Shown: positions 13,331-60,236 of the stretch, piece after piece
How the letters are laid out: every line of letters starts with the position of its first letter
Position numbering within the stretch: the stretch's first letter is position 1
Assembly (NCBI GenBank): GCA_018818405.1
Contig: JAHIRY010000038.1
Span: forward strand, 35,449 to 99,448
Direction: 5' to 3'
DNA length: 64,000 nucleotides
Source of the DNA: Patescibacteria group bacterium
GTDB lineage: Bacteria > Patescibacteriota > Patescibacteriia > UBA11705 > JABHMO01
Translations under genes and position numbers: made by a program
Notes under the pieces: generated by a model
The model's database searches: none
The model's input: the letters and a program-made list of their open reading frames with translations, nothing else
Told to the model about the DNA's origin: nothing

Positions 13331-13420
13331 ATTTTGTTGATTAATTAATGAATTTATAAATGCGACTAGCCAATAATTTATTCCAGGCTACATGATTTAC
13401 TGTTCTATTACTGATTTACG

Positions 13421-13540: not shown

Positions 13541-13574
13541 AAACCAAACTTTCAACTAACACTATATTCTAACC

Positions 13575-15200: not shown

Positions 15201-15331
15201 TACCTGTCAAACGGGGAGGAAAGAGATTGAGAGATTGAGAGATTCAGTAAATGAATAATTTTAGAACTAAAAATTACTCAATCTCTCTATCTCTAAATCT
15301 CTCAGTATCTCAATCCCACCTTCCGTCAAAC
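15201..15331. mobile_element. MITE-like hairpin element (~110 bp) with arms built from GAGATT hexamer repeats, flanked by a 7-bp direct repeat GTCAAAC
   Basis: GAGATTGAGAGATTGAGAGATTCAGTA ... TACTCAATCTCTCTATCTCTAAATCTC inverted arms; GTCAAAC at both ends. Confidence 0.45.
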
Positions 15332-23676: not shown

Positions 23677-23905
23677 GACGCTAACAGACTCTGAATCGAG
23701 TTCAGAGTGACGGGGTGCGGCGCGTCGTCTCATCATCATCATGATTATCCTCGTCACTCTGAACTCGATTCAGAGTCTCCCTCCGGTTTCACCTAGTCGG
23801 TTCCGCTACGACAGCGTCCGCCCGCCCCTCCTCATCGTCACTCTGAACTCGATTCAGAGTCTCTTTTCGGTTTCGCTTAGTCGATTCGACTGCAACGGCG
23901 TCGCG
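23677..23905. repeat. repeat family R4, units c (inverted), d and e (direct, tandem)
   Basis: 23677-23712, 23749-23819, 23833-23905 share the CGTCACTCTGAACTCGATTCAGAGTCT core and tail. Confidence 0.8.
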
Positions 23906-27800: not shown

Positions 27801-30800
27801 CCTGTTCACAAGAGGTATCGGTTAATTGATTTACCAATCTAAAATCTTTTTCTTTATAAACTTGCCCGCGAACTTCTTCACAACTAACGACTGCCTCAAT
27901 CCTGCAAATATTGCCTAAGGAAATGCAGTTTCGTCCTCCGCTACAATCATCGGCTGCTTCGCAACGGCCATATTCTCTTTCTCCACCGCAATAACTTCCG
28001 CAATCAGCATCCGTGGAACACAACCCTTCGTTCGGATTACCAAAACAATATTGTTGACCGCAATCATTGTCATTCACACAAAGATTGCCTGAAGTTACTC
28101 CTCCGCATCTCTTGTCCGGTTCAACCCCGCGTCCCTGCCTCAAATCAAAAGAATTATAAAAATTTACCGGCGCCATATCCGGAATCGCCATTCCGGTATA
28201 ATCGAGCGAAGACCAGCTGACATTTCTATTCTGATAACCGTCAGTTTCATCCGTTCCCTTCAAAGGTTTGTTCAATGACAATAAATTATTATTATCTTCA
28301 CCGACAATGAAATGCGCGCACTTCAATGTATCTTCCGCCGGACTGAGCTTGTCGCAAACTCCGACATCATCGCAAACCTCAATATATTTATTTTTATTCG
28401 AATCCCACGCCCAGTGACTGGACTTGCAATCGTACCAAGCCGCGCATTCGCGATCGCGGACGACTTTTACTATGGAATTCGCATCATTTTTTGAAGCAAT
28501 CAATTCAAATGTACAGGCAATCTGTCTATCAGTACATGTATTAATCTGCTCGGCGCGCGCTTCTCCTGCGCAAGTCAAATAATCTTTTTCAGCATTCACA
28601 CAAGATTCGACTTTTTTACAATAATCATCTTCAGTACAATCACCCACCCGCCCCAGAGCATAACTATCAAACGTCGAAGCATTCTTTGGCGGAACAGCAC
28701 TTTGTTTATCATTTCCTTCAAAATATGTTAAATATCCCTGCCATTTCAAATCAGGTTCGCCATTGGCATTTAACATAGAGGTATCATTCATCAAAATACA
28801 ACCTTCTTTACGACTGACATCTGAACAGGAAGTCTTGTCTATGTCTTCATTATTAACATAATAATAAGCTTTTCCTTTGTCTGACAAAGTTTTATCAGTG
28901 GGATCCACGAACGCGGTGCACAAATCCGCGCTTGACTTGCAGATACCGGCCCAGCCTGAGAAATCTTCATCATTTATTCGAATAATCTGCGAATTTCCAT
29001 CTTCATAATAATTCTTTGTCTCGCATAGTACATCCGGATCATTATCATTCAGTTTCTTTTTGAACCATCCAAATATACTCTCAGAACCTTGCTGAGCTTT
29101 TCTGTATTCGCAAGTTTTATCACCCGGATCCTTAAAATAATAAGTTTCACCTTTTACTCCCTTGAATTCCTCACATCTCAAATCACTATTAGCGCACAGA
29201 GGACTGTTCTCACTATCAAAAGTATCAGGATCCAGTTTGTAAAATACATTGTTCCATTTGTCCTGGGATGGAATATAATTCCCCTCAGCATCCACCATCA
29301 AAGTCGGCAATCCCAGAGCCGTACAACCCTTTTCCGTGTTTTTACATTGTTTATCTTTTGTGTTAACGAGATAAATCAATGAATCTTTTTCTATTTCTTG
29401 AAGGTAGCAGACACCATCGTTCCAATTTCCATCCAAATAACCACACATGTTTTCATAAGTCTGTGAAAGAGCGGGAGGTTCACCGCCAACCTTTGCACGA
29501 ACTTGGAATGTACATGCTTGCAAATTTTCATTCACAACGGCTGCAGTTCCCGGTATCTGGAAAAAATTATTCGTTGGAACTGCCTCCCATTTACTCATAT
29601 AAGAGGAACACAATTCAACATTCAACGGAATTTTCTTGTATCCTTGTTCAAATGGAGACGAACTGTTCTTCGTATCAATCATCGTCTCGCAACCGACCTT
29701 GTCAGCCGAACAGATATTGGTAAAGTTTTTCAGATAATGAGTATTCTTGCCGCTGTCGCGATATTCGCGGCAACCCAGCTGAGCTTGCGGAATTTGTCTG
29801 TCAGCTTCATTTGCCGGAGTATGGGTCAGCTCATTGTCGCAGATCGCCGGAGTACTCCATGAATTTTTGATTAAATATTTGAGATCATTTACTTTTGTGA
29901 TTTTGAAATTGTCGATGTAAAAAGTTCTTTCGCACTGGGACGCGCGTATGCCTATAACACCGGAGGCATAAGTCTCATCCACACTCAAATTAAAAGTATG
30001 AAACTGCCAATCAGCATTAACCGTGCCGTCACCCAATAAAAATTTTCGATCTCCGGTGTTTATATTTTCAACCGGCCTCACATCAACATTGAAATTCGTG
30101 GGATCGCCTTTGATCCAAAAAGAAACAACATAATCACCGACTGCTGATAAAAGCGCATTTTTTGTATATATTCTTGGTGATTCAACACAACTCAATCCCT
30201 CAATCCCGTTAACAGACTCTATTTCAGTCTTCTCTTCCACCATTAAATACTGCCCATCCGCTTGTGTCGTAAGCGACATTGGACTTCCTTGCAAACTAGT
30301 TACCTCTCCGGTCGCAAAATTATTCTCATAAACAATTTCCTCATCACCGCTGAAATTGCCTTTGTATTCTCTGCAGCCGGCGGCAGGCGCTGAACATTTC
30401 TTGCCTTCGCCCGGAATTGCCATGAAAACGCATTCGCCAGTGTTCCACTGCCCCTGCCTCAGTTCGCATTGAGCCTGATCCGCGTATTGCAATGTTCGGC
30501 GATAAGGATGACAATTTTCCGAACAAGTCAGAGTCTTTGAATACAAACGATAAGAAACTCTGCCGGCATCATCGTAAAATTCACGGCAGTCGGGATTTGA
30601 TTTTACAGCGAATATTTCCGCGTTGCACCGGGTTAGATTTTCTTCCTCTGCAATCGTCATTGCCGGAGCATTTCCTCCGAGTTCTTTTTTCAATACATAA
30701 TTCTGCAATTGATAACCGGAAACTCCGCCTCCGACCCAAGTATAATAATTGGCGCACTGAGCCTCGCCCTCGGGAAGTTTCTGGCATTGCCTCAATTCGG

Positions 30801-33781: not shown

Positions 33782-33860
33782 GTCGCACTTCGACAAGCTC
33801 AGTGTGACAGGGGGGGGGAAGCGCCCCCTCTCACTTGTCAGGCTGAGCCTGCCGAAGCCC
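33782..33860. repeat. repeat family R5 (inverted unit, G9/C5 hairpin, partial direct unit), downstream of the GIY-YIG gene
   Basis: GTCGCACTTCGACAAGCTCAGTGTGAC, AGGGGGGGGGAAGCGCCCCCT, CTGAGCCTGCCGAAG. Confidence 0.75.
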
Positions 33861-34160: not shown

Positions 34161-34311
34161 GTCGCACTTCGGCAGGCTCAGTGTGACATGAATTTAACTG
34201 TCACACTGAGGCTAAAAGCCTGTCCCGAGTCGCATCGAGCGGAAGCGTGCTATCATCGTCATCGCAATAACTGTCACACTGAGCCTGCCGAAGTGCCGCT
34301 TCGCTTAACAC
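34161..34311. repeat. repeat family R5: one inverted and two direct units (GTCACACTGAGCCTGCCGAAGTGC...TTCGCTTAACAC)
   Basis: 34161-34187 (inverted), 34200-34222, 34273-34311; 11-bp stem between the first two. Confidence 0.8.
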
Positions 34312-36180: not shown

Positions 36181-36238
36181 CGGAAATGTGGAATTGTAAG
36201 GGTTCAACATGTTGAACCCTTACAATTCCACATTTCCG
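36181..36238. repeat. 58-bp perfect palindrome (29-bp arms) between prfB and rsmA
   Basis: CGGAAATGTGGAATTGTAAGGGTTCAACA|TGTTGAACCCTTACAATTCCACATTTCCG verified base by base. Confidence 0.9.
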
Positions 36239-39062: not shown

Positions 39063-39202
39063 ATTATATTTTTATTTCGAATTTCATTTTGAGGTCGCTA
39101 ATTTACCGCCGCAGCGTGCGGGGTTCCGCTCGCAGCGGGACGAATGTCACAAATATTACGAATTATCCTTTGCAACTAAAAAATTTATAATTTATTATTT
39201 TA

Positions 39203-39345
39203 GTATTTCGAATTTAGAATTTTATTTAATTGAATTCCAGGCGCAAGATTTTGCGCCGGATTAGGCGGGTGCAACCCGCCTCTACAAAAATTGTTACATG
39301 CTTCATGTTATGTGCTCCTTGCTCCCTGCTCCTTTCTCCCTGCCA
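39203..39345. repeat. composite structured intergenic repeat, copy 2 (includes the R1 hairpin module)
   Basis: same blocks as 13421-13540 plus the AGGCGGGTGCAACCCGCCTCTACA module. Confidence 0.75.
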
Positions 39346-39348
39346 ACG

Positions 39349-40035
39349 CTACCGAACCCTGCAAACCCCGAACCAATCTTCAAATTTCCGACAGATTTCC
39401 TGCAATTGTCTTTTCGTATAAATATTCTCACTGATAAAATCCATATTTACCAGCTTTACCGCCGGACGGAATTGCTGGAGAAAAAATTTGTCAGCGCCTT
39501 TTACCTGCTCCGCCATTGCGACAATGTCATCTTCGGAATGAAGGCGCGGCAAAACAGTGGAACGAAATTCATGAGGCAATCCGCTCTCTTTTATTATTAT
39601 AACACTTTTCTTGATTGAATCTAAATCAACTTTGCGGCCGATAATTTGCGGATACTTTTCCCACGGAAATTTTATATCCATCGCCAGATAATCAACCAGC
39701 TTTGCCTTTACAAGATTTTCCAACACTTCCGGCCGGCTGCCGTTGGTGTCGATTTTTATGAGATAATCCAAATCTTTTAATTTTCCGACAAAAGAAATCA
39801 GATCATTCTGCACTGTCGGCTCTCCGCCGGTAATGCAAACCGCGTCAGTCAAATTTTTTCTTTTTTTCAAAAAATTCAAAACCGTTGACACCGGAATCAC
39901 CCGCGAAATTCCCTTGACAATTTCCGGATTATGACAAAAAGAGCAGCGAAAATTACACCCGATGGTGAAGATTGTCGCTGCCACTTTGTCCGGATAATCA
40001 ATGAGAGTTGTCTTCTGGAGTCCCCCGATTAACAT
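39349..40035 (-). CDS. nrdG: anaerobic ribonucleotide reductase activating protein (radical SAM)
   Basis: CNFRCSFCHNPE CxxxCxxC radical-SAM cluster; adjacent to nrdD. Confidence 0.8.
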   Translation of the reverse strand: MLIGGLQKTTLIDYPDKVAATIFTIGCNFRCSFCHNPEIVKGISRVIPVSTVLNFLKKRKNLTDAVCITGGEPTVQNDLISFVGKLKDLDYLIKIDTNGSRPEVLENLVKAKLVDYLAMDIKFPWEKYPQIIGRKVDLDSIKKSVIIIKESGLPHEFRSTVLPRLHSEDDIVAMAEQVKGADKFFLQQFRPAVKLVNMDFISENIYTKRQLQEICRKFEDWFGVCRVR

Positions 40036-42397: not shown

Positions 42398-42485
42398 TAA
42401 GATAGTAAGCGAGATAAGCAAGAAAGAGAGATAAGCAAGTTAAGTTTATCCCGCCCTCGGTGGAACGAGTTAAGTTATAATTCGC
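42398..42485. repeat. repeat family R3, copy 3
   Basis: AGCGAGATAAGCAAGAAAGAGAGATAAGCAAGTTAAGTTTATCCCGCCCTCGG...GAGTTAAGT. Confidence 0.7.
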
Positions 42486-47486: not shown

Positions 47487-47526
47487 ACAATATTTAAAAT
47501 AAAAATTAATTCGCAATGAATTTTTA

Positions 47527-47669
47527 TCGTTTCATGGCGGTGTAGAGACGCATTGCAATGCGTCGCTACATCGCCATGAAGCGATGACGGCGGCGTGTGT
47601 TTTGTCGCGACAATATACGGCGCGGCGGTAAGTAGCGGCGGGTCTAGACCCGCCGCTACTTACCGCCGC
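47527..47669. repeat. GC-rich nested palindromes: a 9-bp outer stem enclosing an 18-bp perfect palindrome, plus a separate 48-bp perfect palindrome
   Basis: TTCATGGCG...GACGCATTGCAATGCGTC...CGCCATGAA; GCGGCGGTAAGTAGCGGCGGGTCT|AGACCCGCCGCTACTTACCGCCGC. Confidence 0.85.
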
Positions 47670-48488: not shown

Positions 48489-51400
48489 TTATTTACACAC
48501 AGGGAAAGCAAGCCCCGGCACAACACTGTAATTGTAAGTATAACCGTCGGAGTTTGTTTCCAATCGATATTTCAATTCATAACAATTTTGCAAGCCTGAA
48601 GCGGAAGCTTTGTATGAATAAACCGGATGATCGGTTTCATGCCCGGCGTAAATATTGGCAAAAAGCTGATTACTGCTATTATAACATGTTTCGCCGTTAT
48701 AGCCTTGGGCGCAGTTGACGCAGGCAAATCCCGGAACAGCGCATTGATAACTCAAATCCGGACATTTCAAAATCGGAGTTTCGTCCTCGACCGAGCAAAT
48801 TTCACCGGTATAATCGCCGCTCTCCGCCGGTGTTTCCCATTTGAAATGATTCTCCGGATCTCTCGGCAATTCCGCGCCGAGTTCCCGACCCAATTCTCCC
48901 TGCCATGACGGCCAAACGCTGAATGTTTGTCCGCGGACATAAGATCCCGATTCGAGCATTGGGACTTTATTTCCATGAGCATTCTTGTAATTTTCCAGAT
49001 AAATTCTCATCAAAACCATGTCGCTGATTCTCTTTGTATCGCGAATGATTTGCGATTTGTCCGGATCAGAGCTCGCGTCGCGGTTCAGATTGAACTTGAT
49101 GTATTTCACCATTTGGCTGTAAATGTTCATTGTTTCCGCGCCGGAATTTCGGGAATAACCCAGCAAATAAATATTATTGTAAACCGTCTTGTTAGCGGAA
49201 ATATTGGCCGCTGAAATATAAATGCTCGAACCGTCCTGCGCCGCAGCATAACAATTTCCCTGAAGATCGCAATCCACTTCCACTTTTGAAGTGCTCGCAG
49301 CCGGATTCGGCGCATAATTCTGATACCACACATCAGGCGGCAATGCTTCCGGATTTTCATAAATTCTGAGAGAAATAACATCAGCTGACGGAATTCCGTC
49401 CGGAGTGAAGAAATATTGCGCCAAGAGTTTCGGCTCCTCAGCCGGATCATCGGCGGAAACGCATTTTTTGTCATCCGGAAAATCAATCAATCCGTTTCGA
49501 TCATTGTCAATTCCGTCTCTGCATTGATTCTCGGATTGAAGACGCACTTGCTCTGCCGCCGCTCCCACATCCGAGCCGAATTGGCTGAACAGATTTACAT
49601 AATTAAATGAACCGCCAGAACAATGATCATCTCCGGTACAAACGCCGATCGCGTTTTGCTGATCATCGGAATTTTTCAAATTATGTTCAAAATCAAGATG
49701 AACAATCAAATTCGGATCATTCTGATCAGTTAAAACATATTGATTTGCAATTATCTCTCCGGTTGTTCTTGCCGTTTTCCAAATTCTAAAATCTTCCAAA
49801 TACCCGTTCAAGCCTCTATCCGGAGTTCCAAAAGATGAACCCACATAAATATCTTTATTCTGAGAAACGCCAGCTACAGGAAAGCTGGAAGCAGCAAAAT
49901 TGCTTCTTTCTCCATCAATAAAAATCTGATACTGCAATCCTCCCGGATGTTCTCCGTCATAAACGACCGAAATTGCATGATACCCTGCAGAAACCGATTG
50001 CGTTGTCTGCAATTTGATGGAATTTAACTGACCATATCTCAGATTCCAATAAACTTTGTTTACCAATCGACCATTTTCCTGAATCGGAAACAAACCAATC
50101 AAAATCTGCGGACATCCTCCGGGAACGGCAGCTTCACAATTGAGATTTTTCGTAAAAATCGGTTGAAACACTTGCCCCGACGGCTCCGGCACATATATCA
50201 GTGATTCAATAGTCCACGGTTTGCTGAAATCTGAAAAGTCCAATTTATTTTGCAAAGCGTCGGTATATGGAATTCGCAATTTATCGTTTTGATCAAATTT
50301 AATGGCAAATCTGTTCGGCGGGATTGCCACTGCCGGCGATTCTTTCAATTTCGGCAGATCATCCGTCGTGTCATTTCCTTCGCCGAAATCGCGGCAGTAG
50401 AAGAGACCGACATTATATTCTTTTTCATTCAGATGAACCGGTACTTTTGTTCCCGTTCCGGTTTCATATTCCAACAAATCCCATTTATCCTCTTCAAAAT
50501 GTTCCGGCGACCATGGATTCTCGCAAATCATCATTTCTATTGTTGCCGCGCCTTCGACAAATGCTCCGGTCGAATCAGCGGAATTAACATCAGCGCAAAC
50601 GCAATTTTCCGCGCCTTCCGCACAGGCGACCGCCGGATCCTGCGTCGCGTCGCGGCATACGCGGCGAATCTCGCCCAGAAAACCGCCTTGGTCAAGGCCC
50701 AATTTGTCAACCGTTATCACCGCTTTCGCGTGAATCTGAGTTTCTCCGTTTTTCGCCGTTGTTGTCACTTTAACCTCGTTTTTATTCTTTTTATCAGATC
50801 CGTTCTGCACAACATTGCAAACTTCCTCATCCTGTCCTTCCACCGCTTCCATCGAACAAATTTTCCCGACAATGGAAGAATCATCGGTTCTCCATTCCCA
50901 GCGCCAATCATAAACTCCGGGAATTGCCTGAATCAAATTTCCTTTGCTCTTGGCGATTGCCCTGTAATCTTCCACATGATCCTGATCGAGAATCAATCGG
51001 TAATCAGGATCCAGACTCACCTGATCGAGCTTGCAAACTTCATTGCCGGTTGAAAATTGAGTGGTGAATTGTCCCAAAACATCGCCGCAAATATTGGTCA
51101 TGTCATCCATTACAACCAAGATTTGTTTTCCGGCGGGCAGAGCTTGTTTCGGAGTAATCATAATGGCGGTTCTTCTGTCAGCCGGATTTTGCTCGCCCGT
51201 GCTCTCAACCGAAACATTATCTATCTCAATACGGCACAAATAAGCTTCCTGCGCAAATGTCACTTTTGCCAATAAATTCTTCAGCGCCAATTTCAATCTC
51301 TGGAAAAATCCCATGGCAGTCTCCGCCGGACATGCCTCTGCGCTCAAATAAAATAATTTTATATTTGTTGAAATATTTTGCTCTCCGATTTTCTTGTTGA

Positions 51401-54400
51401 ACGGAATATAAATCAATGCATTCCGGCAAACACCCGCCGAATTTCTAGCCGGAACTATGTTATTCACATCCATGCGAATATCCGGAGACACGCATTGTCT
51501 GTCGCGAAAAGTCAATTCCGTTGTTCCTGTTTTTGAAATCGGATTATCGCCCGTTTCAGTGCCGGTGGCGCTGATATCGGTGCTGTCCTGCGCATAATGC
51601 TTTTCCGGATCATACAAATTCAGAATATCAATATTGCCGACAACCGTTGCCGACTGATACGGACTCTGACCGATGGACTGACCGCCCGGCTCGCATTGAT
51701 CATCCTCTCCGCTTCCAACAATTCCATCTCCGCAGGCAGAGCCGGCTTCAACCGATGAACCTTGATTCAGACATTTTCCATTGCAATATGAAGGAAATCG
51801 ACAGACGCATCCCTGATCAACGCCATAGACGCAACCGGAACCATCGGCTTTTTTGCATTCTGACTCGCATTCTTCATTTCCATCAATCGTTCCATTTCCG
51901 CAACAATTCTCCGTCACCGCGCCGATACAGCTCGTAAATCCTCTCCACAAACATCTTTCATTGCAATCCGGATTGTCAGCCAATGAACAGACACAGCCCT
52001 GAACTCCGTAAGCGCAAGCTGAATTATTGGCGTTTTTACAAATGGCTTCGCATTCTTCTCCGCCTTCCAGCTCTCCGTTGCCGCAGAGCGCTGACGCCGC
52101 CGGCTCTCCTTTTTTATATTTTGAACCTTCATTTAAACATTTGTTCGAACAACCGTCTCCATTGGAAGTATTGCCGTCATCGCAATCTTCGCCTTCTTCC
52201 ACTATTCCATTGCCGCAGACAAATCCGGCAGCGGTTCCCGCTTTCAAACAACCGGCAGTGCAAGCAGGATCCTTTGCCACGCAAACGCAACCTGCATCTT
52301 CATCTTCCGGGTCGCAGGCTTCGCCATCTTTCAAGAATTGACAAGCGAAATCGCATTCTTCCGTATATGCAATATCTTCGATCGAATAAGTTCCGTCTTC
52401 CCTGCCGTTGCCGCAACATTTTTCATTTTCCGCTCCGGTGCAAAGATTCGGCACCGCCTCGCGCAAACAGTTGGCGGAACAACCGTCTCCATTGGCAATG
52501 TTATCAATTACATCGCATTCTTCACCGCTTTCCCTGATCCCGTTTCCGCAAACCGATGCCAAAGAACCGCTGCCTCTGGACAAACATTTGTCAGTGCAAA
52601 ATTCCGGCAACCCCAAATGATAAAGCGTATCGGAAATTGTCGCCACATTCGGCTTGCCGCTCATCCATGCCCAAGTATAATCATATTGATTCAAAATCTG
52701 TCCCTCCGGATCGCAAGCATCCGGCGCGCTCCTCGGCAGAGCTGAATATGAGATTCTCTGTTCCTTCGTCTCGCTGAGATAACTCTGAGGCATGACTGAA
52801 ACCGAATTGATCCGGCATTTCTCTTCTGTATTTTTTGTTTTGAAAACCCAGCTGAACGAGTCCGTTGTTCCTTGTTCCGCTAGCGCGGTGCTGTAATTCA
52901 AACCTGTCAGATCGACTCCGCTCGCACTCTGAGTATTTCCGGAGATTACCACTCGATAAAATTTGTTCGGCAGTAATTCGTTGCTCGGATTTACAGTCAA
53001 TCGGTTGGTCAGTTTTCCCTCTGCGTCCAATTCGAATTGATAATTCGGAATACTTCCCGCCAAATCAACTTCATCAAAAGTGACGCAATCGGCGCCCGCT
53101 CTGCAGGCAAACAATTTAACATTATCCGTATTCAAGGTTTCAGACCCGTCGACAGCAACATTAATCAAACTTGAAGATTTCATCTGAATATTGAAATCAG
53201 CGCCAAAACCGGCATTAATGCACGCTTCATCGCAAGCCGGAAAATATGAAACCACTTTCGGATCAGCGAATTTTATTTCCAGTTGCGCGTCCTTTGAAAC
53301 ATTGCCGGCAGTACGGAAAATCATTGAATCGGTCGCGATGGTTGCGTATGCTCGCACTCCGACAAGTTCATCAACGGTTGTTTCCAAATTTACCGGATTC
53401 GCTTTTGCCTCGGCTGACAATCCGAAAATTCCAATATCTTTTCGCAATCCATCTTCATCGAATGCGTTTCTCTGGAATGAAACTCGCTCGCTGTTCTCCC
53501 GCGGATCATTCGCCGTCCAGCGCCAATTTTCATCCATTAGCGAAATATCCTGGCACTGATATTGTCCGGAAACCATGAAAGATTCCGTGTCATCCAGTGA
53601 ATCAATCAAACCTTTGATCGGCTTCATCAACAATGTATCGGCAGAACACAATTCCGGCAAAGTTCTGAATTGCCATGAATAATCTCTGGGCATGAATTCT
53701 CCTTTTTCTGTCGCAATACCGTCCGCGCCTCCTTTTATTTCAACTTTATACAATGTATTTTTGAACAAATTGGCGTAAAATCTTGGACCCTCCGCTATCG
53801 GAGCCGCTCCGCCCTTAAACAAAGACTTATTCAAAGTTCTGGCCAAATGAAATTCAGTCAACTGTTTTCCGGAAACTTCACACTCGCAATTCGGCGTTCC
53901 GGCGGCGCAAGAACTTCCGTTTCTGAGACAAACGGCAGATTCATTGGTCGTGCCGATATCATTCGGATCAATCGCCCCGACCGGCTGAGTAATGCAATTC
54001 TCTTCGCACTTGTCCAGATCGCATTGGCCGAGATCAACGGTGCAAGTGCAGGCAGCGGAAGTTTCAACGCATTCTTCACTTTTATTTTCCTCGCATCTCA
54101 GCGTACGCAGAGGATACTCGCATTTTTTTATCGTAATATTATTATTCAATGTCGCTGAATTGATAATCATGTTAAAAGTTCCGGAAATCATTCCATTCGG
54201 ACAAGCGTCAATAGAACCTCTGAACGGCGAAGGCGATTGCGGCAAATATCCGCGAGTGCAGGATCGCTCCAATATTTTCGGGACTTTCGGCAAGGAGCCG
54301 GTGCTCACAATCCAGGCAAACTCAGAATCAGCGCCCTCTGCCGGAGCAACGCATCCGTCTGCAAGGTTTGCGCAAATTCCGGTTGCGCAACATATTCTTC

Positions 54401-56957
54401 CTTCACCGCAACTTTCTCCGCTGCAACTGCCGACAGTAAAATGAACTTCATTGCTTTTCTGCGCATTATCATTATTCTCAACATAAACTTTTCCGGAAAC
54501 CGCTTCAGCCGGAATACGCGCTTTCTTAATGGCAGTGTTAGCCCAAGCCGCAGTTTCAGTCACCTCAATTCCCGGATCATCAGCCACTCCTGTTTTGGCA
54601 AATTTAAGTGTGTAATTCGCTTTCGCTCCGAAATTTTGTCCGCTCAAATCCACCAAAATTCCTCGCGGACCATTGTCCGGAGAAATAGAACAAATCGCCG
54701 GACCGGCAGACTCTTCATTTACCGCCAAATTCTTCGGTTCACTGCGAACAGCATCGGAAGTCACCAGCACAACGCCGTAAGTTCCGGCCGGCAGAGTATC
54801 GGAAATTTTTACTTTTACCTCAGAATCATTCCAGCTGTTATTCTCACAACCAAGGCCGGCATTCGTTTTTTCTCCAGCCGCATCCAACAATTCCACCCAG
54901 CCGACTTTTGTTCCGAAATTTTCTCCGCTCAGAGTAATAATTTGTCCTTGTGGCGCCGGACTCGGCGAAATTTCTTTTATTTCCGGCAAATTCTCCAACA
55001 CGGAAATTCTGAAACGAACCGGATTGCTCACAATAAAAGTGCAGACGCAACCGTCTGTTCCTTTTTCACATTCTTTATTATCAACATTAATGCAACGCTC
55101 GCCCTGGCTGACGGAAACATTTACCAACCCTGATTTTAAATTCGGAATTTGTATTTTTGTAATTCTATCTCTAGTCCATTGCGCGCCAGCTGACAACTGC
55201 GTGGGATTTTCTCCGAAATAAACGCGATATTCCGCCGCGCCCGGATCATTGGACGAACCAAAATTGGTTCCGTTCGCCACGACGCTCTGTCTCAGATCGC
55301 CGGCCAGACAATTGGAGCACTCCGCTCCTTCGCAAACGCAATCTTCCCGCGCAACCGAGCACAATCCCGGATATGTCAGCGTTTCATTTATTACAAAATC
55401 TTTTTTCCACCCGCGATCATTTATTGTGTCATCATATTTATTGTCCTTGTTTACAATTTTAATCGGACCGTCGGTCGCGCCTTCCGGCACTTTTGCGATC
55501 ACTTGCCGGTCAGACCAAGCGAAATTATCAGCGCAGCCCATTTCCGCTTCAATATAAACCGGATTATTGTCACTATCAAGTCCGCCGGTAAAATAAACTT
55601 TGCTTGTTCCGGCGACAAAATTTTTAAATCCCGAACCGTAGACGGAAACCAGATTTCCCGTTGCGCTCTCATCGGGCGTCACATTTGTAATTACCGGCAA
55701 AGCAATACATTTATTCGGTTCATCAACGCCTTGCTCGGCGCAATAATATCCGCTCGCGCAATCAACATCATCGCGGCAAGCGCCGTCGCAAGCTCCGCAC
55801 TCGGCTCGTCCGCAAACAGCGACTCCGTCTTCAAAACATGATTCAGGCAAAACTTTCACTCTTATTTGCTTTGTCGCGGAATGATCATCCACATCATCAG
55901 CCTTTGCTTCCAGAGTATGCATTCCTATTGCCAGATCCGCCGTGTCCCATTCAAAGGAAGATTCTCTCGGCGTGGCTCCGTCTTTGCCTTCTTCTGCGAC
56001 CAGCTCGCCGTCAGCGGAAAATGAAATCGCGCTAATGCCCGAATCATCGACAGCCGAAATATTCATATCAACAAAATCATTGACAGAAACCTTGGCTCCG
56101 TCCAGCGGCGAAGTGAAACTGACTTGCGGCGCGGTGACATCAACATTTTCACCGGTTGTAAAATCCGATCGGCACACACTGCCGGGAGCGCAAGACAATC
56201 CCTTTCCGCCGGTCGATTTTATTTCCGTCGGAACAAGAGAGACCGAATATTCGGTATTCGCGCCAAAACATTTTAAATTATCATTCGGCGCCGGACATTT
56301 TTCAGATGGAGTAAATACAACTTTACTGCCAATGACCACAAAATCGCCGGCAACCGCATTACCCTCTTTGTCAATTATCTTTACTGTTTGATCATTAATT
56401 GTTCGAGAATTTACGGTCGAAGAAAAATTGATGCGGACTTTTACATTTCGCACTTTCAATTCAGTACTCGGCGAAATGGATCGTCCGACAAAAGATCGGA
56501 CATTAGCGACTTGCAAACCGCCGATCGGCGCCGCGCCTTGAATTTCAACTCCCGGTCCGGCCTGCAAACCGGTTGCTTCTGACAATCGGCTGATAACAAA
56601 AGATGTAATCGCGTAAGCTGAAAAAACAATTGCCAAACCGATAAAAGAATTGATTAAAATTTTCTTTGCTTTCGCCACTTTCGCCTCTTCTCCTCCGCTC
56701 GTCATGTAAACAAAGCCGCCGTACAAAACCAAAACAATCGCGATCACGCCGACAAAACCGAGAATAATTCTGATAATATTGCCGATCGTCACGCGCAGAT
56801 CAACTCCGGCTGAAAGTCCGGTCGCCTCGCCCACTGTTTCCACTCCCAGATCCGGCGCCTGAGCAAACACTCCGCTTGCAAATGAAAATCCGCTGACAAT
56901 TATGAAGAATATTATCAGCCATTTAATCAATTTTTTTATTTTTCCTTCGTTAAACAT
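48489..56957 (-). CDS. giant (2822 aa) surface protein: pilin-like two-helix N-terminal anchor, Myxococcus-type Cys-rich repeats, LamG/ConA-like domain
   Basis: N-terminus YMTSGGEEAKVAKAKK between two TM helices; repeats CGNGxxExGEECDxxxxxxGDGCSxxC; GYLEDFRIWKTARTTGEI LamG_3-like. Confidence 0.85.
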   Translation of the reverse strand: MFNEGKIKKLIKWLIIFFIIVSGFSFASGVFAQAPDLGVETVGEATGLSAGVDLRVTIGNIIRIILGFVGVIAIVLVLYGGFVYMTSGGEEAKVAKAKKILINSFIGLAIVFSAYAITSFVISRLSEATGLQAGPGVEIQGAAPIGGLQVANVRSFVGRSISPSTELKVRNVKVRINFSSTVNSRTINDQTVKIIDKEGNAVAGDFVVIGSKVVFTPSEKCPAPNDNLKCFGANTEYSVSLVPTEIKSTGGKGLSCAPGSVCRSDFTTGENVDVTAPQVSFTSPLDGAKVSVNDFVDMNISAVDDSGISAISFSADGELVAEEGKDGATPRESSFEWDTADLAIGMHTLEAKADDVDDHSATKQIRVKVLPESCFEDGVAVCGRAECGACDGACRDDVDCASGYYCAEQGVDEPNKCIALPVITNVTPDESATGNLVSVYGSGFKNFVAGTSKVYFTGGLDSDNNPVYIEAEMGCADNFAWSDRQVIAKVPEGATDGPIKIVNKDNKYDDTINDRGWKKDFVINETLTYPGLCSVAREDCVCEGAECSNCLAGDLRQSVVANGTNFGSSNDPGAAEYRVYFGENPTQLSAGAQWTRDRITKIQIPNLKSGLVNVSVSQGERCINVDNKECEKGTDGCVCTFIVSNPVRFRISVLENLPEIKEISPSPAPQGQIITLSGENFGTKVGWVELLDAAGEKTNAGLGCENNSWNDSEVKVKISDTLPAGTYGVVLVTSDAVRSEPKNLAVNEESAGPAICSISPDNGPRGILVDLSGQNFGAKANYTLKFAKTGVADDPGIEVTETAAWANTAIKKARIPAEAVSGKVYVENNDNAQKSNEVHFTVGSCSGESCGEGRICCATGICANLADGCVAPAEGADSEFAWIVSTGSLPKVPKILERSCTRGYLPQSPSPFRGSIDACPNGMISGTFNMIINSATLNNNITIKKCEYPLRTLRCEENKSEECVETSAACTCTVDLGQCDLDKCEENCITQPVGAIDPNDIGTTNESAVCLRNGSSCAAGTPNCECEVSGKQLTEFHLARTLNKSLFKGGAAPIAEGPRFYANLFKNTLYKVEIKGGADGIATEKGEFMPRDYSWQFRTLPELCSADTLLMKPIKGLIDSLDDTESFMVSGQYQCQDISLMDENWRWTANDPRENSERVSFQRNAFDEDGLRKDIGIFGLSAEAKANPVNLETTVDELVGVRAYATIATDSMIFRTAGNVSKDAQLEIKFADPKVVSYFPACDEACINAGFGADFNIQMKSSSLINVAVDGSETLNTDNVKLFACRAGADCVTFDEVDLAGSIPNYQFELDAEGKLTNRLTVNPSNELLPNKFYRVVISGNTQSASGVDLTGLNYSTALAEQGTTDSFSWVFKTKNTEEKCRINSVSVMPQSYLSETKEQRISYSALPRSAPDACDPEGQILNQYDYTWAWMSGKPNVATISDTLYHLGLPEFCTDKCLSRGSGSLASVCGNGIRESGEECDVIDNIANGDGCSANCLREAVPNLCTGAENEKCCGNGREDGTYSIEDIAYTEECDFACQFLKDGEACDPEDEDAGCVCVAKDPACTAGCLKAGTAAGFVCGNGIVEEGEDCDDGNTSNGDGCSNKCLNEGSKYKKGEPAASALCGNGELEGGEECEAICKNANNSACAYGVQGCVCSLADNPDCNERCLWRGFTSCIGAVTENCCGNGTIDGNEECESECKKADGSGCVYGVDQGCVCRFPSYCNGKCLNQGSSVEAGSACGDGIVGSGEDDQCEPGGQSIGQSPYQSATVVGNIDILNLYDPEKHYAQDSTDISATGTETGDNPISKTGTTELTFRDRQCVSPDIRMDVNNIVPARNSAGVCRNALIYIPFNKKIGEQNISTNIKLFYLSAEACPAETAMGFFQRLKLALKNLLAKVTFAQEAYLCRIEIDNVSVESTGEQNPADRRTAIMITPKQALPAGKQILVVMDDMTNICGDVLGQFTTQFSTGNEVCKLDQVSLDPDYRLILDQDHVEDYRAIAKSKGNLIQAIPGVYDWRWEWRTDDSSIVGKICSMEAVEGQDEEVCNVVQNGSDKKNKNEVKVTTTAKNGETQIHAKAVITVDKLGLDQGGFLGEIRRVCRDATQDPAVACAEGAENCVCADVNSADSTGAFVEGAATIEMMICENPWSPEHFEEDKWDLLEYETGTGTKVPVHLNEKEYNVGLFYCRDFGEGNDTTDDLPKLKESPAVAIPPNRFAIKFDQNDKLRIPYTDALQNKLDFSDFSKPWTIESLIYVPEPSGQVFQPIFTKNLNCEAAVPGGCPQILIGLFPIQENGRLVNKVYWNLRYGQLNSIKLQTTQSVSAGYHAISVVYDGEHPGGLQYQIFIDGERSNFAASSFPVAGVSQNKDIYVGSSFGTPDRGLNGYLEDFRIWKTARTTGEIIANQYVLTDQNDPNLIVHLDFEHNLKNSDDQQNAIGVCTGDDHCSGGSFNYVNLFSQFGSDVGAAAEQVRLQSENQCRDGIDNDRNGLIDFPDDKKCVSADDPAEEPKLLAQYFFTPDGIPSADVISLRIYENPEALPPDVWYQNYAPNPAASTSKVEVDCDLQGNCYAAAQDGSSIYISAANISANKTVYNNIYLLGYSRNSGAETMNIYSQMVKYIKFNLNRDASSDPDKSQIIRDTKRISDMVLMRIYLENYKNAHGNKVPMLESGSYVRGQTFSVWPSWQGELGRELGAELPRDPENHFKWETPAESGDYTGEICSVEDETPILKCPDLSYQCAVPGFACVNCAQGYNGETCYNSSNQLFANIYAGHETDHPVYSYKASASGLQNCYELKYRLETNSDGYTYNYSVVPGLAFPVCK

Positions 56958-56984: not shown

Positions 56985-58916
56985 TTACTCCGCGCTCGGA
57001 AGAGGACAAGAATCCGCCGACACCTTTTGCAATGGGAAATTCGCTTCGTTCAAATTCGGACAACAAGAAGTTCCCGATCCCGCATCCGTGCAGTCAGCAA
57101 ACGATTTTGTCGGACTGAAACAATTTTGTCTGGAATCCCGCACCGTTGATTTGATAATCGGCGTATATTTCGGCGAAGCATTCGCAGTCTCCGGACTGAA
57201 CGCGCCATGATTAATTTCAATCTTAGCATCATCAACTTCACCGTCAGCCGTTTCTCCCAGATTCGCGTCAAACCAAGAAGTAAAATCTTCTCCAATCAAA
57301 GCAACCTCCCGATCAACCGATTCCGCGTCCAATCCTTCATTGAAAGTCGCAGACAAAATAACATTTACCGGCAATGAATCGCTGGCATTGTTCGGTTCAA
57401 GCAATGTAATCCAAGGCGGAGTCAAATCAAGCGAATCGCCGGTTTTGAATTTCCATTGAAAATCATCGGTGAGCGGACCGTCGCATTTATCATTAGCATT
57501 TCCATCCAGAGAATTTCCCGCCATATCCATAATTCCCGTGCCCGGAGTGCCCAGACAGCCTTCGATCAAATCAGCTGCCAATGCTTTGCCGGTAATTTCA
57601 ACATTGCTCGGCAAGCAAAATACCGGCTCGCCGCAAGAATTTTCTTGCACTCCCTCGCACGGAGTATTGCTGATAAACTGAATTGTTTTATAACTATTGA
57701 TTCCGACTTTCCAGTCGCCGGGAATATGATTTGTTTCACAATCATCTTTTGCATGATCCGGACCGAAGAGCTGCGCTTCATTGTCATTGTCAGCCGCATT
57801 GCACACCTGCTCCTGGCTCAACGGAGGAATCACCGGTTCATTGAAATTTATTGAAACTATTTGATTCAAATACACATAACCTTGTTTGTCCAACGCTCTA
57901 TCGCTCACATCAGGATATTCATGATCAGCCGGCACAACCGAACGAATCTGCGGCGGAATATTGTCAATGGTCGTGTTTGTCAGAAATCTCCATTTGTAAT
58001 CAGGCGTTGCCAGATTAAAAATGCTTTGGCCGTCCGATCCTTCTCTCAGAATTCCGGAGGTTAACTGAACAATATAAGAAACTTCATTTTCCGAACTGCC
58101 CATATGTTCATTGGCGCTTTGGCCGTACGGATTGAAAATAATTGTCCTGTGATCAGCGGTAATCATCGCATAACCGGGAACTTGTAATTCCGCGTTGCCC
58201 GGAACTTCCTTGCAATCCATCATTTTTTCTTCCGCGCACCCGAAAACCTTGAATGATTCGGTCAGCGAACCGCATATTCTTCCATCCGCCATTGCCGGAC
58301 ATGGATAAGCCGCGTTCGCAGATCCGATGACAGACGCCGGATCAACCGGCAAACGAAATGTCACAAGAATCATTGAATTGCGCGGCACTCCGGTCTGCTC
58401 GGGCAATGGATAATGGCTCTGAATCACCGAGCCGAAAGCTCCGCCTGATAAACTTACTCCCGGTCCGCCTCGTCCGGCGATTGTAACTCCGCCTCCGCCA
58501 CCGCCCGCGCCGACCAATCTATTGACAACAAAAGAAACGATCGCGTAAGCGGAAAAAATTATTACCAATCCTATGGCTCCGTTTATCATCCATTTTTTTG
58601 CTTTTTCCACCTTGGCCGGCTCTCCTCCGCTGGTCATGTAAAGCGCGCCCGCATACATGACAATGATTATCGCGATCGCGCCGACAAAACCGAGCGCGAT
58701 TTTGATAATATTTCCAATAATTACTCTGGGATCCTGCGCCGTGAGTATCGTTTGCTCGCCCACCGCAGTCAGTCCGGCTGTAATCTCAGACTCCGCCGCT
58801 TGCGCGTGAACCGAAACCGGCGAAAATAAAAAAATCGCCAAAACAAATATAAAACAACCGGCAGTTATCTTGATTATAAAATCCAACTGATTTGATTTTA
58901 TTTTGTTTGGCATCAA
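56985..58916 (-). CDS. 643-aa membrane/surface protein sharing the same N-terminal pilin-like anchor, then a Gly-rich linker
   Basis: DPRVIIGNIIKIALGFVGAIAIIIVMYAGALYMTSGGEPAKVEKAKKWMINGAIGLVIIFSAYAIVSFV aligns with the N-terminus of the 2822-aa protein. Confidence 0.75.
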   Translation of the reverse strand: MMPNKIKSNQLDFIIKITAGCFIFVLAIFLFSPVSVHAQAAESEITAGLTAVGEQTILTAQDPRVIIGNIIKIALGFVGAIAIIIVMYAGALYMTSGGEPAKVEKAKKWMINGAIGLVIIFSAYAIVSFVVNRLVGAGGGGGGVTIAGRGGPGVSLSGGAFGSVIQSHYPLPEQTGVPRNSMILVTFRLPVDPASVIGSANAAYPCPAMADGRICGSLTESFKVFGCAEEKMMDCKEVPGNAELQVPGYAMITADHRTIIFNPYGQSANEHMGSSENEVSYIVQLTSGILREGSDGQSIFNLATPDYKWRFLTNTTIDNIPPQIRSVVPADHEYPDVSDRALDKQGYVYLNQIVSINFNEPVIPPLSQEQVCNAADNDNEAQLFGPDHAKDDCETNHIPGDWKVGINSYKTIQFISNTPCEGVQENSCGEPVFCLPSNVEITGKALAADLIEGCLGTPGTGIMDMAGNSLDGNANDKCDGPLTDDFQWKFKTGDSLDLTPPWITLLEPNNASDSLPVNVILSATFNEGLDAESVDREVALIGEDFTSWFDANLGETADGEVDDAKIEINHGAFSPETANASPKYTPIIKSTVRDSRQNCFSPTKSFADCTDAGSGTSCCPNLNEANFPLQKVSADSCPLPSAE

Positions 58917-59008: not shown

Positions 59009-59470
59009 TTATCTCTCTATAATTTCTTTCACAATACCGCTCACAGTATTTCCATCCGCTTTTCCTTTTAATTCTTTCATTGCCGCTGACATTGCTTTGC
59101 CGAAATTTTTTCTGTCTTCTTCCGGCAAATTTTGAATCGCCGCCTCCGCCAGCGCTCTGACTTCTTCGACCGGCGCTTCATCCGGCAAAAAATCTTGCAG
59201 GATTTCGATTTCCGCTTTTTCTTTGTCAGCCAATTCCCTGCGTCCGCCTTGTTCAAAAGCCACAACAGATTCATTGCGCTTTTTTATTTCATTGCGAACG
59301 ATGGAAACAAAATCCTCCTCTGTCAATTCCCGCTTCAGCTCAATGGATTTATTTTTCAATCCGGCTTTCAGCATGCGCAGAGTATCTATCGTCAGACTGT
59401 CTTTCTTTTTTAATGCCTCGGTAAAAACCGCGTCAATTTCTTTGAATGATTTCATAAGATAATTATACAA
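59009..59470 (-). CDS. yqeY: GatB/YqeY-domain protein (the start may be MKSFKE at 59455)
   Basis: YqeY-like helical protein; conserved rpsU-yqeY neighbourhood. Confidence 0.7.
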   Translation of the reverse strand: MYNYLMKSFKEIDAVFTEALKKKDSLTIDTLRMLKAGLKNKSIELKRELTEEDFVSIVRNEIKKRNESVVAFEQGGRRELADKEKAEIEILQDFLPDEAPVEEVRALAEAAIQNLPEEDRKNFGKAMSAAMKELKGKADGNTVSGIVKEIIER

Positions 59471-59496
59471 TATTTTATTAAAAATGAGAATCCACA

Positions 59497-59621
59497 GGCA
59501 GCGGCGGAGAATTAAGATTAAGATTAAGGAGAAAAATTAAGGAAATAAAAATCCAAGCCCTAATTCTTAATCTTATCCTTATCCCTAATTCTTTCACCGC
59601 AACGGCGCCGGCGGAGAATCG
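59497..59621. mobile_element. second hexamer-repeat hairpin element (TAAGAT-type arms) flanked by an 11-bp direct repeat CGGCGGAGAAT
   Basis: GAGAATTAAGATTAAGATTAAGGAG ... CTAATTCTTAATCTTATCCTTATCCC; direct repeats at 59503-59513 and 59609-59619. Confidence 0.4.
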
Positions 59622-59739
59622 AAAACATTTCATCCGATCGCCGGCCGTACGGAACAAAAATCTTTGTTCCCCGTTTTCATTAAAAAAATTTTAAATTATT
59701 CATAAATAAAATATCAACGCAACATCCCGCGCAAAATAA

Positions 59740-59768
59740 AAAAATTCCGCAAACTGCGGAATTTTTTG
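59740..59768 (-). terminator. intrinsic terminator after rpsU
   Basis: AATTCCGCA-AAC-TGCGGAATT with flanking A/T runs. Confidence 0.7.
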
Positions 59769-59781
59769 AATGAATTCGAAT

Positions 59782-60024
59782 TTAATATCGTCGTCTTCGC
59801 TGCGGTTCTTCCGGCAATCGGCCGATCTTTTTCATGTATTCATGCGTTTCCCGTTTTTCTTTTTTCACGAGAGCGCTCTTCCGGCGCATGTTTCGATTGA
59901 CATCGCCCTTGAAAAAACGAATCTTCTTCGCCTGCAACAGCAAACCGCTCTGCATCAGCCGCTTGTTAAAGCGCCGAATAAAAGCTTCAAAAGTTTCGCC
60001 TTTTTTTCTCTTTGAATAAACCAT
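59782..60024 (-). CDS. rpsU: 30S ribosomal protein S21 (ORF to 60066; the SD GAAGGAG indicates the MVYSK start)
   Basis: IRRFNKRLMQSGLL...AKKIRFF, C-terminal RRRRY. Confidence 0.9.
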   Translation of the reverse strand: MVYSKRKKGETFEAFIRRFNKRLMQSGLLLQAKKIRFFKGDVNRNMRRKSALVKKEKRETHEYMKKIGRLPEEPQRRRRY

Positions 60025-60067
60025 TGTTTCGACTCCTTCTAGTAAAAATTTAATTATATTAACCACC

Positions 60068-60185
60068 CGTCACACTGAGCCTGCCGAAGTGCGCATTCGC
60101 CTAAAACGCCATCACCGCCCGTCACGCTGAGCCTGCCGAAGCACGCTCTTCTCTGTCACGCTGAGCCTGCCGAAGCGCACCTTCA
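60068..60185. repeat. three direct R5 units (GTCAC[A/G]CTGAGCCTGCCGAAG...TTCGCCTAAAAC), remote from any GIY-YIG gene
   Basis: units at 60068, 60121, 60157; same family as 33782-34311. Confidence 0.8.
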
Positions 60186-60236
60186 CTTAAACGTCGCCCA
60201 CATATTACCGCAAACATTCACTTCCGTCAAGATCCC

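Follow-up and report, generated by a model that had tools for sequence, protein, structure and literature searches.

A repeat-armed hairpin in the S21-yqeY spacer of a Patescibacteria group bacterium and its possible origin in place

The S21-yqeY spacer and the E2 hairpin

The hairpin that is our subject, which we call E2, occupies part of a 326-nt spacer; the genes on either side, both on the minus strand, are a probable gene for ribosomal protein S21 upstream and yqeY downstream. We analyzed E2 together with the 64 kb of DNA around it from an uncultivated Patescibacteria group bacterium (positions 1 to 64,000, hereafter the window). Read along the minus strand from S21, the spacer contains a terminator-like hairpin, a promoter-like site, a small palindromic hairpin, a short GC-rich helix, E2, and a promoter-like site for yqeY. 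The genes and the smaller features are as follows:

59782..60024, minus strand: probable ribosomal protein S21 gene, the upstream neighbor of E2 (TIGR00030, E = 1.8e-4, under that model's cut-off)
59739..59767, minus strand: intrinsic-terminator-like hairpin of the S21 gene (13-pair stem and U run)
59688..59717, minus strand: promoter-like site TTGATA-18-TAAAAT, upstream of the structured spacer (a consensus match only, 10/12)
59651..59670, strand not assigned: small palindromic hairpin GGAACAAAGATTTTTGTTCC, terminator-like or REP-like
59462..59490, minus strand: TG-extended promoter-like site TTCTCA-17-TATAAT; 6 nt separate the end of its -10 box from the yqeY ATG
59009..59455, minus strand: yqeY (GatB/YqeY domain), the downstream neighbor of E2 (PF09424 is on record for an identical protein)

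The NCBI record for the encoded YqeY is named [quoted passage not shown] The probable S21 is 60% identical to its orthologue at a related locus (L061), and a match to PF01165 is on record for that protein. The canonical terminator-like hairpin of the S21 gene is 120 nt upstream of E2. At the other end, the predicted yqeY promoter-like site (59462..59490) abuts the 3' foot of the E2 hairpin, which also has a weak terminator-like site (TCCGCCGCTGCCTGTGGA and then TTCTCATTTT). The small hairpin GGAACAAAGATTTTTGTTCC has two more copies past the end of the window (L064, 871-1000) and another beside the Pth gene of a relative (L066, 913-973). The E2 locus is 100% identical in two other assemblies (SRR6514274 and ERZ27247128), with no variation in repeat number, so E2 is not an assembly artefact. 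The three assemblies with the locus (L001, L064, and L065) are 100% identical and show no polymorphism.

E2 itself has these parts:

59491..59615, minus strand: full predicted hairpin, including two short outer helices (RNA fold; 59486-59620 gives 51 pairs, -45.7 kcal/mol)
59501..59600, minus strand: core stem-loop, with the closing helix GCGGUG/CGCCGC, then the repeat-unit arms and an AU-rich loop (RNA minimum-free-energy fold)
59511..59528: perfect tandem hexamer ATTAAG x3.0, which is the 3' arm on the minus strand (CUUAAU x3; Tandem Repeats Finder, period 6, 100% matches)
about 59558..59593: degenerate complementary arm, with CCCTAATTCTT twice, 25 nt apart (repeat and inverted-pair search)
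59502..59512: left copy of the 11-bp direct repeat CGGCGGAGAAT, which forms the stem base (exact match)
59609..59619: right copy of CGGCGGAGAAT, 9 nt outside the core stem (exact match)

A first-pass annotation of this DNA had claimed an imperfect long hairpin here, and the predicted folds bear this out. Minus-strand RNA from 59490-59630 folds into a single unbranched stem-loop with 49 pairs and an energy of -47.0 kcal/mol. Its z score is -3.87 against dinucleotide shuffles of the same sequence, which average -32.2; none of the 200 shuffles was as stable. The minimum-energy structure makes up 16% of the ensemble. When we regressed energy on GC content over all 130-nt windows on both strands, E2 was the 8th strongest fold in the 64-kb window, and a second element, E1 (described below), was the 4th. 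Extending the minus-strand fold to 210 nt of the spacer gave z = -3.6.

The predicted hairpin is strand-asymmetric: it is more stable as gene-sense (minus) RNA than as plus-strand RNA, and it is weak as DNA. Of the 49 minus-strand pairs, 22 are A-U, 17 are G-C, and 10 are G.U; there are three 1x1 mismatches, one C.U and two A.A (none is A.C). Plus-strand RNA forms 37 pairs, including one G.U, at -35.0 kcal/mol (z = -2.63). As single-stranded DNA, the two strands give -19.6 and -17.3 kcal/mol with diffuse ensembles. We considered whether E2 is an intrinsic terminator and rejected this: the core stem is followed by GCUGCCUGUGGAUUCUCAUUUUU, with no U tract directly after it, and the one terminator-like score there comes from a sub-hairpin of 5 pairs at the foot.

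The arms of E2 are built from repeats. The TAAGAT hexamer that had been claimed earlier is present as the perfect ATTAAG array at 59511-59528; the two names are one repeat read in different frames. The other arm (59558-59592) is 71% complementary over 35 nt, and the inverted repeat can also be drawn as 17 nt at 88% (both at the DNA level). On the minus strand, this 5' arm is a purine-rich degenerate complement (...AGAAUUAGGGAUAAGGAUAAGAUUAAGAAUUAGGG...), with G frequent where the exact complement would be A. Besides the CCCTAATTCTT pair, there is a second pair with 25-nt spacing, GGCGGAGAATTAAG and GGAGAAAAATTAAG, in the opposite arm at 59503 and 59528. Both arms of E2 therefore carry a duplication with 25-nt spacing, at mirrored positions (59503/59528 and 59558/59583).

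The 11-bp repeat was correctly reported to occur on both sides of the hairpin, and its right copy was correctly placed at 59609-59619, but the left copy lies at 59502-59512, not at 59503-59513. With 88% identity allowed, the repeat lengthens to 16 nt (59497-59512 and 59604-59619), and CGGCGGAGAAT has no third exact copy in the 64-kb window. The left copy pairs within the stem: CGGCGG with CACCGC (on the minus strand, CGCCGC with GCGGUG) and AGAAT with ATTCT. In predicted folds, the right copy could pair alternatively with the base of the 5' arm or with the outer flanks.

A second element and the recurrence of the architecture

The sister element, E1, lies at 15.2 kb in the window:

15206..15331, minus strand: E1, a hairpin of sister architecture with 8-nt units (AGAGATTG x2.9, perfect, in one arm; CTCAATCT x4.9 at 74% in the other)

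E1 starts at the stop codon of a gene for a C39-like peptidase. On its 3' side there is a short, weak terminator and then the promoter of prs (ribose-phosphate pyrophosphokinase). The fold of E1 has 49 pairs and reaches -52.9 kcal/mol on the minus strand (z = -6.65) versus -40.8 on the plus strand (z = -4.0). GTCAAAC is found at both ends of the stem; as GUUUGAC on the minus strand, it pairs with itself via G.U and forms the outermost helix. E1 and E2 have a common build: 49 pairs each, one perfect and one degenerate tandem-repeat arm, a GC-rich closing stem, and an AU-rich loop. Folds of the other tandem-repeat tracts in the window (at 11.3, 13.5, 39.3, and 42.4 kb) were not significant (z between -1.0 and -1.5).

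The first-pass annotation had likened E2 to the element at 15201-15331. This likeness holds for the architecture but not for the sequence, where the similarity is at chance: the best local score is 23, shuffle nulls give 17.6 +/- 2.7 and 18.5 +/- 3.3 (p = 0.05-0.11), and 2.5% of genomic windows reach the same score. Judged by these alignments, E1 and E2 are not demonstrably homologous.

We also considered whether E2 might be a biologically meaningless chance feature of AT-rich, low-complexity DNA. The chance-level similarity of E1 to E2 would fit, and so would some G/U-rich spacers of relatives, which fold solely through G.U pairs (for instance, L055 367-596). However, 0 of 200 dinucleotide shuffles fold as well as E2, and E2 is in the top 8 of the GC-normalized folds of the window. 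In addition, its inverted repeat is detectable in the DNA itself (35 nt at 71%, 17 nt at 88%), and the exact 11-mer is present twice where none is expected. The architecture common to E1 and E2 is not a product of chance. We consider this reading most improbable; the shuffle statistics effectively refute it.

We then scanned for hairpins of this build, folding with RNAfold and scoring each arm for tandem repeats. The best cases were located in spacers. Members of this class at related loci include 4914-4989 (CGAATTAACR 10-mers), 7424-7540 (CAAAGNN 7-mers), 2402-2522, and 6345-6428 in L066; 1923-2037 in L055; and hairpins with CUACGAAA units in L057/L067. In L066, most spacers between co-directional genes contain a long hairpin, and four of these have CGAAT-type units. 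Applied to 270 kb of unrelated yqeY loci, the scan again gave clear cases: 7- and 9-mers in Pyrinomonadaceae (L013, L020, and L037) and perfect 9-mers in a Chthoniobacterales MAG (L045). The rate was 1.5-1.9 per 100 kb in these Pyrinomonadaceae and Chthoniobacterales loci versus 2.7-4.5 per 100 kb in the clade of E2. Across the class, units have periods of 6, 7, 8, 9, or 10 and are unrelated in sequence. The architecture is real and recurrent, and it is neither hexamer-specific nor limited to the lineage. The earlier proposal of a class of hexamer-repeat hairpins is thus upheld insofar as the architecture recurs in relatives (L066, L067, and L055), but the periods run from 6 to 10 and other phyla have such hairpins too.

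Both E1 and E2 have a bias toward G.U pairs on the sense strand. This is not a rule for the class: the elements of relatives favor the sense strand, the antisense strand, or neither. Because the bias is mixed among relatives, we make no claim of RNA-level selection for the class, and the strand bias may reflect local composition instead of selection on RNA.

In the literature that we searched, such elements are not described for Patescibacteria, nor are arms made of short tandem units that recur with unrelated sequences across spacers and phyla. It is conceivable, although rather unlikely, that the class consists of functional RNA elements at gene boundaries that are recurrently regenerated in streamlined Patescibacteria and in some other phyla. 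Stems that can shift register and tolerate G.U pairs would be selected as cistron barriers or processing sites. Genome-specific units, such as the CGAAT-type units in four spacers of L066, would have co-evolved with a dedicated factor that binds RNA or DNA, or would owe their presence to an unknown dispersal mechanism.

Mobile-element, RNA, and operator readings

A common mechanism for the hairpins had been suggested at first pass, either a mobile element or replication slippage. If E2 were a miniature non-autonomous mobile element (MITE-, REPIN-, or ERIC-like) that was inserted into the spacer, then the 11-bp repeat would be its target-site duplication. An exact 11-bp repeat within 120 bp has a chance expectation of ~0.002 (a rough estimate), and this one extends to 16 nt at 88%. 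Also, E1 has GTCAAAC at both stem ends; the hairpins of L066 have a common unit motif; dispersed short repeats are abundant (GTCACNCTGAGCCTGCCGAAG has 7 copies in the window, and several spacers contain the small hairpin); and the length of E2, ~100-125 nt, resembles that of ERIC elements and REPINs as generally known.

The anatomy of E2 speaks against insertion. The interval between the CGGCGGAGAAT copies (59513-59608) begins with TAAGATTAAG and ends with CACCGCAACGGCGC, and these ends are not complementary. Because the left copy forms the stem base and the interval lacks terminal inverted repeats, the pair does not qualify as a target-site duplication of the transposon kind. A duplication of 11-16 bp is also atypically long for bacterial DNA transposons.

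The copy number of E2 is no more favorable to this reading. E2 is single-copy in the 64-kb window at up to 3 mismatches, whereas a true dispersed repeat such as GTCACNCTGAGCCTGCCGAAG, with its 7 copies, is readily detected there. A 20-mer comprising arm repeat and GC-rich base had 2 unrelated, apparently protein-coding matches in 241 million metagenome records, in a collection that does not include the source contig. Besides E1 and E2 not being alignable above chance, no spacer of the relatives that we fetched aligned to either element above the null. An apparent match of E2 to an arm in L055 (TTAGGATAAGGA...) did not stand out against the null. Neither do the arms behave like REP or REPIN sequences: ATTAAG units are not over-represented elsewhere in the window, and E1 uses a different unit. 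Finally, 42 ORFs of the window, scanned against Pfam or NCBIfam, showed housekeeping genes, with no RAYT/IS200-type transposase or reverse transcriptase among them. We therefore think it unlikely that E2 is a mobile element.

Could E2 instead be part of a functional RNA? It might belong to a small RNA of ~200 nt that starts from the promoter-like site at 59717-59688, or to a structured 5' leader or attenuator of yqeY in which two copies of AUUCUCCGCCG compete for GCGGUGAAAGAAU. Several features are consistent with this: the promoter-like site (10/12 matches) just after the S21 terminator, the weak terminator-like site at the 3' foot of E2, the significant 210-nt minus-strand fold (z = -3.6), the enrichment of G.U pairs on the sense strand, and the alternative pairings offered by the duplicated 11-mer.

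The spacers of relatives argue otherwise. We found no YqeY between 100% and 53% identity to the window protein in 5.8 billion proteins, and the best YqeY match among GTDB representatives (one genome per species) is 53% identical, so that no close relative was found there. At ~50% identity, relatives have a common gene order: signal peptidase, HisRS, S21, YqeY, a T4SS-pilin-like protein, and a giant protein. The S21-yqeY spacers of these syntenic relatives are 81, 159, 207, and 234 nt long, versus 326 nt in the window, and their content is unrelated. E2 is absent from all of them. The shortest, the 81-nt spacer of L059, has a modest hairpin and a TGGTATAAT box only. Since relatives have such short, hypervariable spacers at the same synteny, the extra ~250 nt, including E2, are dispensable for the operon.

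What is conserved in these spacers is a promoter box. A TGnTATAAT box lies 0-9 nt before the yqeY ATG in the window, L055, L059, and L057/L067 (4/5 genomes). In L061/L066, the box is ~175 nt upstream of the ATG and two hairpins lie between; one of them is a long repeat-armed stem that ends in seven U and is unrelated in sequence to E2. L066/L061 are the only syntenic relatives with a long hairpin at the orthologous position. The comparison of the yqeY-S21 spacer that had been proposed thus turned up a repeat-armed hairpin, but not E2 itself. The hairpin modules sit at differing places relative to the conserved landmark, the TGnTATAAT box.

An RNA gene or leader that included E2 would therefore not be conserved: in the same gene order, a spacer of 81 nt manages with one hairpin and a promoter box. 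The box of yqeY itself is 6 nt before the ATG and is kept in 4/5 genomes, so a long leader is unnecessary. Low-complexity repeat arms are also untypical of leaders that sense ligands or proteins. Rfam 15 had 0 matches in the whole window at the gathering thresholds; in the spacer, searched at E <= 10, the best matches were miRNA and snoRNA look-alikes (E = 0.09 or worse, 21.7-23.7 bits against thresholds of 47-80). On balance, a functional RNA of this kind seems an unlikely explanation of E2.

We also considered several more specific identities, and favor none of them. E2 has no central bubble and no Rfam match, in contrast to a 6S RNA. Triplet or GGA arrays of the TRAP, HutP, or CsrA type resemble it only in having purine-rich repeats. 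A conserved cis-regulatory RNA of the S21-yqeY operon does not agree with the 81-234 nt of unrelated content in relatives. E2 does not seem to be coding either: a 59-aa ORF on the minus strand (59478-59657) lacks a ribosome-binding site, matches no NCBIfam family at E <= 1, and translates into low-complexity repeats, and an 18-aa plus-strand ORF (MRIHRQRRRIKIKIKEKN) has no ribosome-binding site.

Alternatively, E2 might act as DNA: an oligomeric DNA-binding protein would recognize its direct and inverted hexamer array, immediately 5' of the yqeY -35 box, as an operator- or iteron-like site. Short units in direct and inverted orientation do abut the promoter-like site at 59490-59462, and the units of L066, which recur in four spacers, have the 10-bp period of a helical turn. 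However, the complementarity of E2 reaches beyond the repeat units into the GC-rich closing stem and the loop-proximal segments, which an array of binding sites would not need. Unit periods also vary among elements (6, 7, 8, 9, and 10), E1 is not beside a promoter (a terminator separates it from the prs promoter), and no candidate regulator is encoded nearby among the window ORFs that we scanned. We regard an operator-like role as quite improbable.

A possible origin in place, and comparison with known systems

In the reading that we prefer, E2 is no transposon, no conserved RNA gene, and not coding. This explanation, to which we give about an even chance (roughly 0.5), is that E2 is a lineage-specific, single-copy, non-coding quasi-palindrome that was built in place by slippage and by template switching from arm to arm. 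As a transcribed stem-loop located between the terminator of S21 and the near-leaderless promoter of yqeY, it would be tolerated and might have a use. We read this history from the internal repeats of E2.

Two steps would be needed. First, replication slippage could have produced the hexamer array, the 25-bp duplication, and the 11/16-bp duplication of the flank. Slippage had been one of the two mechanisms suggested at first pass, and it agrees with the hexamer array, which is perfect, and with the abundance of local direct duplications, but a second step is required for the inverted repeat. Second, intramolecular template switching, in which one arm was copied from the other, could have produced the inverted repeat and the mirrored duplication. 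We infer this step because slippage alone cannot make an inverted repeat. Template switching is a known mechanism for creating and repairing hairpins. It is documented (PMC8794818 and PMC13100816) to yield perfect stems in a single event and to expand the arms of inverted repeats.

The mirrored 25-nt duplication is the strongest internal evidence for template switching: two independent duplications with matching boundaries are unlikely, so one templated copy is favored. In addition, the inverted copy of the left flank, together with a direct copy at the far side (the 11/16-mer), is the type of footprint that template switches leave. The recurrence of the architecture with unrelated sequence, in the spacers of relatives and of other phyla, is a prediction of a generic mutational route. 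One arm is perfect and the other is degenerate, so any copying between them was not recent. The four L066 hairpins with common CGAAT-type units in separate spacers count against purely local growth; these common units hint at dispersal or at a shared constraint.

If E2 acts at all, then RNA of the gene-sense strand is the plausible agent, as a predicted 49-pair stem-loop in read-through or spacer transcripts. Such an RNA could block 3' exonucleases, be a substrate for a double-strand RNase, or insulate yqeY from upstream transcription. There is no sign of a new biochemical system in these results.

If E2 was indeed built in place, then E1, E2, and their counterparts are snapshots of long, RNA-foldable stems arising de novo in bacterial spacers; the birth of hairpins by such a slippage and template-switch route has been argued so far mainly from the histories of rRNAs and miRNAs. 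For annotators, there is a caution: in genomes of the candidate phyla radiation, a hairpin may be long and statistically significant without being an RNA gene or a MITE. And if the hairpins prove to be selected elements at gene boundaries, they would be an inexpensive way into the transcript architecture of unculturable organisms.

E2 can be compared to several known kinds of elements. Like intrinsic terminators, it follows a gene and folds into a stem-loop whose base is GC-rich, and the L066 counterpart ends in seven U. However, the 49-pair stem of E2 is 5-10 times the usual length, and the S21 gene already has a canonical terminator-like hairpin. MITEs of the ERIC, Correia, and RPE types are imperfect palindromes of ~100-150 bp that are intergenic, are co-transcribed with their neighbors, and may affect mRNA stability; their ends are inverted repeats, their target duplications are short and of the TA type, and their copies number from tens to hundreds. 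As these families are generally described, E2 is similar in its length, its imperfect palindrome, and its intergenic position, but it has neither terminal inverted repeats nor TA-type target duplications nor, in the window, multiple copies. The STRRs of heterocystous cyanobacteria, which were reportedly described by Mazel et al. in 1990, are heptamer tandem repeats whose short, genome-specific units fill intergenic spacers. In L067, arrays of GCAACTGA directly after several stop codons are similar to these; STRRs, however, are plain direct arrays, whereas E2 has two complementary arms.

REPINs are roughly 100 nt in size. E2 resembles REP sequences and REPINs (PMC3116915) in being extragenic, in its predicted hairpin in single-stranded DNA or mRNA, in its place between co-directional genes, and in having a genome rich in dispersed short palindromes. 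It differs in that REPINs are multi-copy, with a conserved REP sequence and an associated RAYT, whereas E2 is single-copy in the window and has no relatives in sequence.

Template-switch quasi-palindromes (PMC8794818 and PMC13100816) are the known kind that our preferred reading invokes. E2 shares with these an imperfect inverted repeat beside direct duplications, with a duplication mirrored in the arms, and a long, RNA-foldable stem that comes with neither an enzyme nor an element boundary. E2 differs in that its arms are now ~71% complementary at the DNA level, so any such event would be old, and in that its tandem-repeat arms add a component of slippage. Overall, neither template-switch quasi-palindromes nor long imperfect intergenic palindromes are new as kinds of elements; arms made of repeat units, as in E2, are a variant.

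Promoter box and mRNA start of yqeY

Four of the five syntenic genomes (the window and three relatives with about 50% protein identity to it) have an extended -10 box, TGnTATAAT, 0 to 9 nt 5' of the start codon of yqeY:
Window 59462-59469, TGnTATAAT box of yqeY
L055 about 2493-2500, TGnTATAAT box of yqeY
L059 about 714-721, TGnTATAAT box of yqeY
L057 about 2485-2492, TGnTATAAT box of yqeY

No Shine-Dalgarno sequence is present at yqeY where the box adjoins the start codon (those same four genomes). Because the box is so close to the start and there is no Shine-Dalgarno sequence, the sequences suggest that yqeY has a conserved leaderless or near-leaderless mRNA. In the relative represented by L061 and L066, the box is about 175 nt upstream of the yqeY ATG, with two hairpins in between.

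Large genes, composition, and a nuclease unit

Two giant ORFs and a protein with a T4SS-pilin N terminus and Big_5 domains are found downstream of yqeY, and this arrangement is kept in all of the syntenic relatives:
Window 24832-33753, giant ORF (2973 aa)
Window 48489-56957, giant ORF (2822 aa)
Window 56985-58916, 643-aa protein

The minus strand carries most genes from 11.4 kb onward, and the plus-strand GC skew is strongly negative (-0.05 to -0.23) across the whole window (1-64000). Neither a tRNA nor a member of any other Rfam family was found in the 64-kb window.

A GIY-YIG nuclease ORF of 101 aa (PF01541, E = 1.4e-16) is flanked on both sides by inverted copies of AGACTCTGAATCGAGTTCAGAGTGAC that match exactly or almost exactly:
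Window 23041-23208, 23268-23573, 23683-23865, GIY-YIG ORF and bracketing inverted copies

The ORF and its flanking copies may together form a small unit of the mobile or homing type. The start of AGACTCTGAATCGAGTTCAGAGTGAC, GTCACTCTGA, is similar to the GTCACNCTGAGC repeat family.

Palindromes and small hairpins

The strongest folds in the window come from three additional long intergenic palindromes of unrelated sequence:
Window 36181-36238, 47526-47585, 47622-47669, palindromes

Two of the three have perfectly matched arms (29+29 nt and 24+24 nt) that meet with no loop between them. These palindromes may be young inverted duplications.

The small hairpin GGAACAAAGATTTTTGTTCC is found at these sites:
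Window 59651-59670
L064 871-1000
L066 913-973

In L064, an identical locus from another assembly, it recurs near the Pth gene as an inverted pair, just past the end of the window; in L066 (only about 50% protein identity), a near-identical copy adjoins Pth. It appears to be a conserved bidirectional terminator of which a copy also reached the spacer between S21 and yqeY.

Dispersed and tandem repeats

The dispersed repeat GTCACNCTGAGCCTGCCGAAG has seven copies in the window:
Window 60066-60190, 33788-33857, 34164-34296, GTCACNCTGAGCCTGCCGAAG sites

The HisRS-S21 spacer is taken up by three copies in direct orientation; at about 34.2 kb, inverted pairs form a long hairpin. Spacers of L055, L057, and L066 hold related CCTGCC...CGAAG motifs.

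Tandem repeats occur at several sites:
Window 13411-13560 and 39201-39350, minus strand, paralogous spacer modules
Window 11335-11365 and 42405-42445, related purine-rich tandem tracts
L067 9263-9310, 10445-10480, 7686-7720, GCAACTGA post-stop arrays

The two modules, downstream of Rrf2 and NrdG-like genes, each carry purine-rich tandem repeats of the GGGAGCA type, in which the AGGAG motif occurs several times; after these come the hairpin GGCGCAAAATCTTGCGCC and GAATTCAATTAAAT. Neither module has a significant long hairpin fold. The second pair (AAGCGAGAxAAGCAAG...AAGCAAGTTAAG) has one tract 3' of ftsW and the other antisense in the nrdD 5' region. In L067, the 8-mer GCAACTGA, with GACCAAC variants, is repeated in tandem directly 3' of the stop codons of HisRS, YqeY, and signal peptidase. 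These arrays are genome specific, and they recall the STRR repeats of cyanobacteria.
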